Assembly (NCBI GenBank): GCA_964461835.1 | Contig: CAYWVO010000006.1 | Coordinates: forward strand, 13,998-77,997 | Direction of reading: 5' to 3' | Length of the DNA: 64,000 nucleotides | From: an uncultured Ignavibacteria bacterium | Lineage (GTDB): Bacteria; Zixibacteria; MSB-5A5; WJJR01; JAJRUJ01 | In this document: positions 58,335 to 58,372 of the stretch, piece after piece | Numbering within the stretch: the first letter of the stretch is position 1 | Layout of the letters: every line of letters begins with the position of its first letter | Notes under the pieces: model-generated | Database searches by the model: none | The model's input: only the letters and a program-made list of their open reading frames with translations | What the model was told of the DNA's origin: nothing | Program-made: the position numbers and the translations under genes

Positions 58335-58372
58335 ATGTCACCCCGGCCTTGAGCCGGGGTCCATTTTGGGAC
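58335..58372 (+). repeat. Family-C hairpin repeat, copy C4 with a compensatory stem change (ACCCCGGC / GCCGGGGT)
   Basis: atgtcaccccggccttgagccggggtccattttggg. Confidence 0.85.

Follow-up and report, generated by a model that had tools for sequence, protein, structure and literature searches.

Intergenic CTTGA-loop hairpins of a Zixibacteria-like genome are probably Ssn-related motifs

A short inverted repeat at 58337-58361 of the 64-kb window (the whole stretch of DNA analysed here) recurs in the same window with stems that differ between copies and stay complementary, raising the question of which molecule folds at these sites and what keeps it foldable. An earlier note on this DNA had listed six copies and proposed as the structured molecule either an RNA, acting as a terminator or stability element, or single-stranded DNA (ssDNA). 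All six copies were recovered to within 1-3 nt and the quoted stems were correct, including the single G·T pair of copy 5 and the GCAG loop of copy 6 (Table 1). The flanks that had been described held in part. The 5' flank TGTCA was found in five copies, with TGTC before the stem, and not in copy 5, which has CGTCA (CGTC before the stem). The 3' flank TCCATTTTGGG(G) was present in only three copies, the others being TCCCATTACCC in copy 2, TCCAGGGGCGGG in copy 5 and TCCATTTTCCCC in copy 6, and a C directly 3' of the palindrome was common to all six. The repeat, referred to as family C, was accordingly described as YGTC-[8-bp A…T stem]-loop-[stem']-C, with six intergenic copies in the window and a decayed seventh in which T replaces the C after the stem.

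Table 1. Hairpin repeats of the window, with positions, strand, form, DNA folding and neighbouring genes
Feature	Positions	Strand	Form	Stem pairing	DNA fold (kcal/mol)	z	Genomic setting
Family C, copy 1	4797-4821	-	tGTC-ATCCCGGC-CTTGA-GCCGGGAT-C	8/8 pairs	-9.5	-3.95	Convergent genes 2896-3810(+) (UbiA family) and 5040-6218(-) (4Fe-4S protein)
Family C, copy 2	15216-15240	-	tGTC-ATCCCGGC-CTTGA-GCCGGGAT-C				Convergent genes 14526-15059(+) (GNAT) and 15629-16510(-)
Family C, copy 3	31767-31791	+	tGTC-ATCCCGGC-CTTGA-GCCGGGAT-C				Divergent intergenic region, 30473-31174(-) and 32257-33240(+); left arm of tail-to-tail +/- doublet
Decayed tetraloop-type copy	31949-31971	-	GTCATTGCCGCGTAGGCGGGAATT: GTC-ATTGCCGC-GTAG-GCGGGAAT-T	One mismatch	-6.6		Right arm of the same doublet
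Family C, copy 4 (reported site)	58337-58361	+	tGTC-ACCCCGGC-CTTGA-GCCGGGGT-C		-10.9	-4.6	130 nt downstream of Lon-like gene 55754-58207(+)
Family C, copy 5	58541-58565	+	cGTC-ATTCCGGC-CTTGA-GTCGGAAT-C	One G·T pair	-5.2	-0.57	113 nt upstream of gene 58678-62445(+)
Family C, copy 6 (tetraloop type)	62577-62600 (62576-62603 with flanks)	+	TGTC-ACCCCAGC-GCAG-GCTGGGGT-CCAT				
Family A	3894-3918	+					
Family A	3951-3975	+					
Family A	58278-58302	+					
Family A	58483-58507	+					
Family A, degenerate	31726-31750	+					
Family A	4081-4105	-					
Family A	4857-4881	-					
Family A	5010-5034	-					
Family A	15600-15624	-					
GTAG-headed palindrome	15315-15356						
GTAG-headed palindrome	15375-15425						
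GTAG-headed palindrome	21876-21930						
Hairpin repeat	4761-4778		CCCTGACGTTCGTCAGGG				Just 3' of a family-C copy
Hairpin repeat	58421-58438		CCCTGACGTTCGTCAGGG				Just 3' of a family-C copy
Hairpin repeat	15193-15209		CCCTTGCGMAGCAAGGG				Just 3' of a family-C copy
Hairpin repeat	62608-62624		CCCTTGCGMAGCAAGGG				Just 3' of a family-C copy

A generic search of the window for GTCA followed by an 8-nt stem, a loop of 3-6 nt, the returning stem and C, with at least 7/8 pairs, gave exactly the six family-C sites, against a mean of 0.21 and a maximum of 2 in 300 first-order Markov simulations. All six were intergenic in a window of which 14.7% is intergenic (P about 1e-5). Stems were perfect over 8 bp in five of the six copies and at least 7/8 pairs formed in each. 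The DNA folds of the window copies ranged from -5.2 to -10.9 kcal/mol, with z between -3.5 and -4.6 for the four perfect-stem copies folded, and the copy with the G·T pair folded weakly. In the seven window sequences, pairing held in 98% of stem cells and three pairs were changed on both sides; the covariation score was reached by none of 500 shuffles, and controls with slid registers dropped to 15-48% paired. The orientations of the copies along the window run -,-,+,+,+,+, and a replication-strand hypothesis for this order was rejected as no GC-skew switch was found in the window. An outer CCC/GGG helix around the hairpin was likewise dismissed as unconvincing, with only 3 weak pairs.

A hairpin system of closely similar design has been described by Chenal et al. 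(Nat Commun 2025; PMC11893778). Briefly, the Neisseria Transformation Sequence (NTS), CGTCATTCCCGCGMAVGCGGGAATCYRG, and the more broadly defined Ssn-related motifs (SRM) are recognised by SsnA, a 94-aa single-domain GIY-YIG protein (cd10448), which binds the hairpin solely in top-strand ssDNA and cleaves that strand a few nucleotides upstream. SsnA is inactive on double-stranded DNA, RNA and the reverse strand, and binding and cutting restricted to ssDNA are known for the Neisseria and Wolbachia enzymes only (PMC11893778). Cleavage depends most on the three nucleotides before the palindrome (GTC) and binding most on the C directly after it; in N. meningitidis the identity of the loop is dispensable, and changing the stem sequence with the hairpin kept abolishes SsnA activity (PMC11893778).

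The GTC, the A…T 8-bp stem and the trailing C are common to NTS and family C and were kept in all six window copies. Like NTS and SRM, family C is directional, with YGTC ahead of the stem, a short loop, a C behind it and an ATTCC-like stem consensus; its copies are numerous and intergenic, solo or in inverted doublets, and hairpins of this type bracket genes for GIY-YIG proteins of about 100 aa, as described below. We consider it probable that family C is a set of SRM (NTS-like) DNA hairpins. As such it would be a further member of that family, from a new, Zixibacteria-like host lineage and mostly in a loop class that the published motif fails to capture. Since stem changes abolish SsnA activity, the four stem variants of the window may not all suit one enzyme.

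The published SRM pattern, HGTCWYN(0-2)YYVSBRHN(0-5)WNVSBRGN(0-2)RNCYNB, was built by hand from 29 genomes (PMC11893778). Applied to the window it gave a single match, at copy 6 with its GCAG loop, and left the five CTTGA-loop copies unmatched because it expects a tetraloop beginning with G. CTTGA hairpins bracketing Ssn-like genes elsewhere were rejected by it too. Family C differs from NTS and SRM in this respect, as the loop in five of its six copies is the pentaloop CTTGA, closed by G-C or another pair, and it differs from the characterised systems in that its host is a Zixibacteria-like metagenome-assembled genome with no ssn gene within 84 kb. A full-text literature search with exact CTTGA-class sequences returned no papers, and an NTS-type string led to PMC11893778.

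The distribution of the CTTGA-loop hairpin was examined in one genome per species for 185,579 species using the pattern GTCA-N7-CTTGA-N7-TCCATTTT, in which the first A-T pair was fixed and the other seven positions of each stem arm were unconstrained (N). At least 118 loci were found. Among the 126 matches listed, 88 had 7/7 Watson-Crick pairs and 12 had 6/7, thirty distinct stem sequences occurred with the consensus ATTCCGGN, and the base before GTC was Y in 118. Hosts among the matches listed included Bacteroidota, Alphaproteobacteria, Gammaproteobacteria, Planctomycetota, Armatimonadota, Nitrospirota, Endomicrobia, CPR lineages and a Zixibacteria chromosome, and the hairpin is therefore not specific to one lineage, its core being conserved across many phyla. 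The same pattern in viral contigs, used as a negative control, gave 19 matches to a conserved non-palindromic phage sequence and no hairpins, indicating that the pattern alone does not create hairpins. A lineage-specific form (GTCAYCCCGGCCTTGAGCCGGGRTCCATTTTGGG) gave no matches in a metagenome scan.

The larger alignment bore out the claim of the earlier note that the stem changes are compensatory. In 124 distinct sequences among the matches listed, with chance hits kept, all seven variable pairs covaried with a score reached by none of 500 shuffles, double-sided changes filled 194 cells compared with 48 expected, and sliding the register lowered the paired fraction from 91% to 14-45%. The further claim of selection on structure rather than on sequence goes too far, as the flanks and much of the stem are kept across phyla and altered stems that still fold abolish N. 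meningitidis SsnA activity (PMC11893778). Single stem deviations in the cross-phylum members listed comprised six G·T pairs and six other mismatches, a split that favours neither RNA nor DNA. An inverted partner within 150 nt, nearly always on the 3' side, accompanied half of the CTTGA hairpins among the matches listed, and the window pair formed by copy 3 and the decayed copy is arranged in the same way.

One match led to a gene. At L067 (Pareuzebyella sediminis) a 100-aa GIY-YIG protein (PF01541) is encoded between hairpin arrays on both sides, in which a CTTGA-loop hairpin on the + strand is paired tail-to-tail with a - strand hairpin matching the published SRM pattern. The spacing of Tyr, Tyr and Glu in this protein is exactly that of Y6, Y17 and E64 of SsnA. 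Its homologues numbered 2,396 matches, all of about 100 aa and annotated as 'GIY-YIG nuclease family protein'. Judging from size, catalytic spacing and SRM association these proteins probably belong to cd10448. A PDB sequence search with the Ssn-like protein returned a distant UPF0213 GIY-YIG entry (1ZG2) alone and no solved Ssn structure.

Eighty metagenomic loci with homologues of this protein were fetched, and 189 GTCA-stem-loop-stem-C hairpins were counted in them compared with none after shuffling. Most (144/189) lay within 300 bp of the Ssn-like gene, with 57 of 75 upstream hairpins on the + strand and 64 of 87 downstream hairpins on the - strand, so that the order hairpin(+)–gene–hairpin(-) forms an IS-like bracket around these genes. 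The loops were GAAA (49), GCAA (19), CTTGA (17, the third commonest), GTAA (15), CTTGT (9) and others, and 15 of the 17 CTTGA-loop hairpins were within 300 bp of the gene. CTTGA hairpins occurred in nine of the 80 loci, C-Y-Y-G-N pentaloops in about 18, and the published SRM pattern in 38 (84 matches). Pentaloop hairpins and GNRA-type or other tetraloop hairpins were interchangeable as the two ends of a locus, the end pairs including CTTGA/CTTGA (L125), CTTGA/GAAA (L140), CTTGA/GCAG (L175) and GAAA/CCTGA (L165). Given the NTS/SRM architecture and the bracketing of Ssn-like genes by hairpins of the same type, ssDNA is by analogy the evidence-backed one of the two molecules originally proposed, and the partner enzyme is a nuclease and at most a hypothetical transposase.

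Ssn-like genes were also observed on 18 IMG/VR contigs classed as viral (L222-L239), with SRM-type hairpins near the gene in 12 of the 18 and a clean hairpin(+)…gene…hairpin(-) bracket on about half. Such contigs are a possible vehicle for spread between phyla, or they may carry host flank in prophage calls.

The other molecule proposed, a hairpin in transcripts serving as a weak intrinsic terminator or a 3'-end stabiliser as suggested for some REP elements, is improbable in light of these and further results. Family C resembles Rho-independent terminators as a GC-rich intergenic stem-loop sometimes followed by Ts (the stem is often followed by TCCATTTT), every copy is intergenic, and the three copies between co-directional genes are all in the sense direction downstream of a gene. 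A terminator scan nevertheless called no family-C copy because the T-run is too short. Copy 3 and the decayed copy lie between divergent genes, and hairpins among the matches listed that are flanked by co-directional genes favoured neither orientation (38 sense and 33 antisense) even though the asymmetric flanks are conserved, which is unlike terminators. Over the whole window at the gathering threshold Rfam gave a tRNA and nothing else, and for 58200-58700 at E <= 10 nothing meaningful lay over the hairpins. The RNA form is not bound by SsnA (PMC11893778).

Family C also shares features with the REP, BIME and REPIN elements associated with RAYT (REP-associated Y1 transposases of IS200/IS605 type), namely a short intergenic hairpin form, a conserved 5' head, inverted doublets, mosaics with other hairpins and a proposed role as ssDNA substrates. 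That family C is itself the REP of a RAYT is very hard to sustain. The partner of family-C-type hairpins is a GIY-YIG nuclease, whose genes they bracket, rather than an HUH Y1 transposase, REPs are lineage-specific whereas the family-C core crosses phyla, and no Y1 transposase is encoded in the window. In a related Zixibacteria chromosome the repeat on either side of the Y1_Tnp gene is instead a different palindrome with a GTAG head (GTAGGTCGGGTT…AACCCGACCTAC), the relatives of which form a separate family in the window (15375-15425 and 21876-21930).

These REP-like window palindromes (GTAGtGTCGGGTTTCTCC…GGAACCCGACCTAC) resemble the inverted repeats (L242, 13645-13660/14244-14259) around the RAYT-like Y1_Tnp gene (PF01797) of chromosome CP070813.1. 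Alongside family C, this lineage thus probably has a separate REP/RAYT system.

Two further systems invite comparison with family C. Subterminal hairpins of IS200/IS605 elements are, like it, imperfect palindromes that flank a small gene and are recognised as ssDNA, but neither TnpA nor TnpB was found here and transposition of a hairpin–ssn–hairpin unit is hypothetical. The Neisseria dRS3/NIME repeat (ATTCCC-N8-GGGAAT) has the same type of palindromic core, and the tetraloop copies ACCCCAGC-GCAG-GCTGGGGT and ATTGCCGC-GTAG-GCGGGAAT are close to it in form; dRS3 is however Neisseria-specific and defined by its palindrome, whereas family-C stems are AYYCCRGC and direction is given by the flanks.

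No Ssn-like ORF was detected in the window with an HMM built from 120 homologues (E <= 10) or with a GIY-YIG consensus, nor in the 10 kb on either side (L121, L240), giving about 84 kb covered in all. Six-frame translations around each copy contained no Ssn remnant between or beside the hairpins, and the annotated ORFs of the window included no transposase or other nuclease partner. The lack of an Ssn within about 84 kb would fit an orphan state, in which the copies descend from an SRM/Ssn invasion, the cognate Ssn has been lost or was never present and the palindromes persist neutrally. Apparent compensation would then stem from the amplification of a few masters that were palindromic already, or from correction within quasi-palindromes by template switching or mismatch repair, with no current selection. 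Of the genomes with over 200 SRMs, 19% have no SsnA homologue (PMC11893778), the stem ATCCCGGC/GCCGGGAT is identical in three of the six copies as expected from few masters, one copy has decayed and another has a G·T pair. On the other hand, five of the six stems are perfect and the GTC and C determinants intact although the flanks have fully diverged, which argues for recent spread or ongoing constraint, and we regard the orphan state as unlikely.

In the favoured reading of family C as SRM-type hairpins, by analogy with N. meningitidis, the top strand of a copy would fold whenever it became single-stranded during replication, repair or the arrival of incoming DNA. An Ssn encoded elsewhere in the genome may then bind the stem and the 3' C and cut a few nucleotides 5' of GTC. 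From their architecture, the solo copies and the +/- doublet could be gene-less derivatives of hairpin–ssn–hairpin units, presumably spreading through intergenic DNA in the manner of REP/REPIN and MITE elements. If recognition or propagation required a sequence to keep folding, stem changes would appear compensated. Intrastrand correction of quasi-palindromes may make an indistinguishable, non-selective contribution to this compensation. No empty sites that would document mobility were found, the orthologous loci in relatives (67-72% protein identity) being too diverged.

Several variants of this scheme are, even taken jointly, rather doubtful: that CTTGA/CTTGT hairpins constitute an Ssn specificity class in which the loop is read, that the hairpins are maintained without Ssn, or that family A (described below) and family C make up a novel composite mobile unit. 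If the genome keeps perfect hairpins without any Ssn, other machinery that recognises or propagates hairpins would be implied.

The NTS/SRM–Ssn hairpin family, so far mainly reported from Neisseria and few other bacteria, is with these copies extended to a Zixibacteria-like lineage. As the widespread CTTGA pentaloop class escapes the published pattern, SRMs have probably been undercounted in the literature. Candidates for new ssDNA-cutting specificities would be the Ssn enzymes associated with pentaloop hairpins. The hairpins also matter for annotation, where they give rise to spurious ORFs, and for short-read assembly, which breaks at the repeat. The window by itself opens no new biological question.

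With regard to assembly, short-read (Logan) contigs of the same organism break in or just after family-C copies (L122 ends at about 58441 and L240 starts at about 62582), which fits a high genome-wide copy number. With regard to annotation, four ORFs of 83-129 aa without a family match (31431-31820(+), 58213-58524(+), 62442-62711(+) and 15225-15476(-)) run through or abut hairpin clusters and are probably spurious products of the repeats.

A second directional hairpin family, family A (GTGCGCGGCAGG-N6/7-CCTGCC), had eight copies in the window compared with 0.17 expected, and its stems are also compensated (GGCAGG/CCTGCC and GGCAGA/TCTGCC). In three cases a family-A hairpin preceded a co-oriented family-C copy by 33-35 nt, on its 5' side, with spacers of differing sequence. 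This arrangement of A, a spacer of about 34 nt and C suggests either a composite module or an insertion preference common to both families. Together with the hairpin repeats just 3' of family-C copies, three or four hairpin types occur in BIME-like mosaics.

Other genes of the window were noted. The Lon-like protease upstream of copy 4 had its best named relatives in Zixibacteria (67-69% identity), and an identical protein is present in the Logan assemblies of SRR7048218 and SRR7048220. PEP-CTERM and T9SS-tail proteins are also encoded in the window. A sat-like ORF, an adjacent AprB-sized ORF (candidates by likeness and size) and aprA (adenylyl-sulfate reductase alpha subunit, TIGR02061, 886 bits) at 7071-10661 mark a dissimilatory sulfur gene cluster, and a tandem pair of FKBP-type isomerase paralogues, both of 142 aa, is found at 36007-36991. 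Within a low-GC stretch at about 12-16 kb, GC falls to 0.47 at 12019-14282 where a PLD-like protein (weak DISARM DrmC match) is encoded beside an N6/N4 DNA methylase. This may be a restriction or defence islet of horizontal origin, and family-C copy 2 is located at the edge of this stretch.
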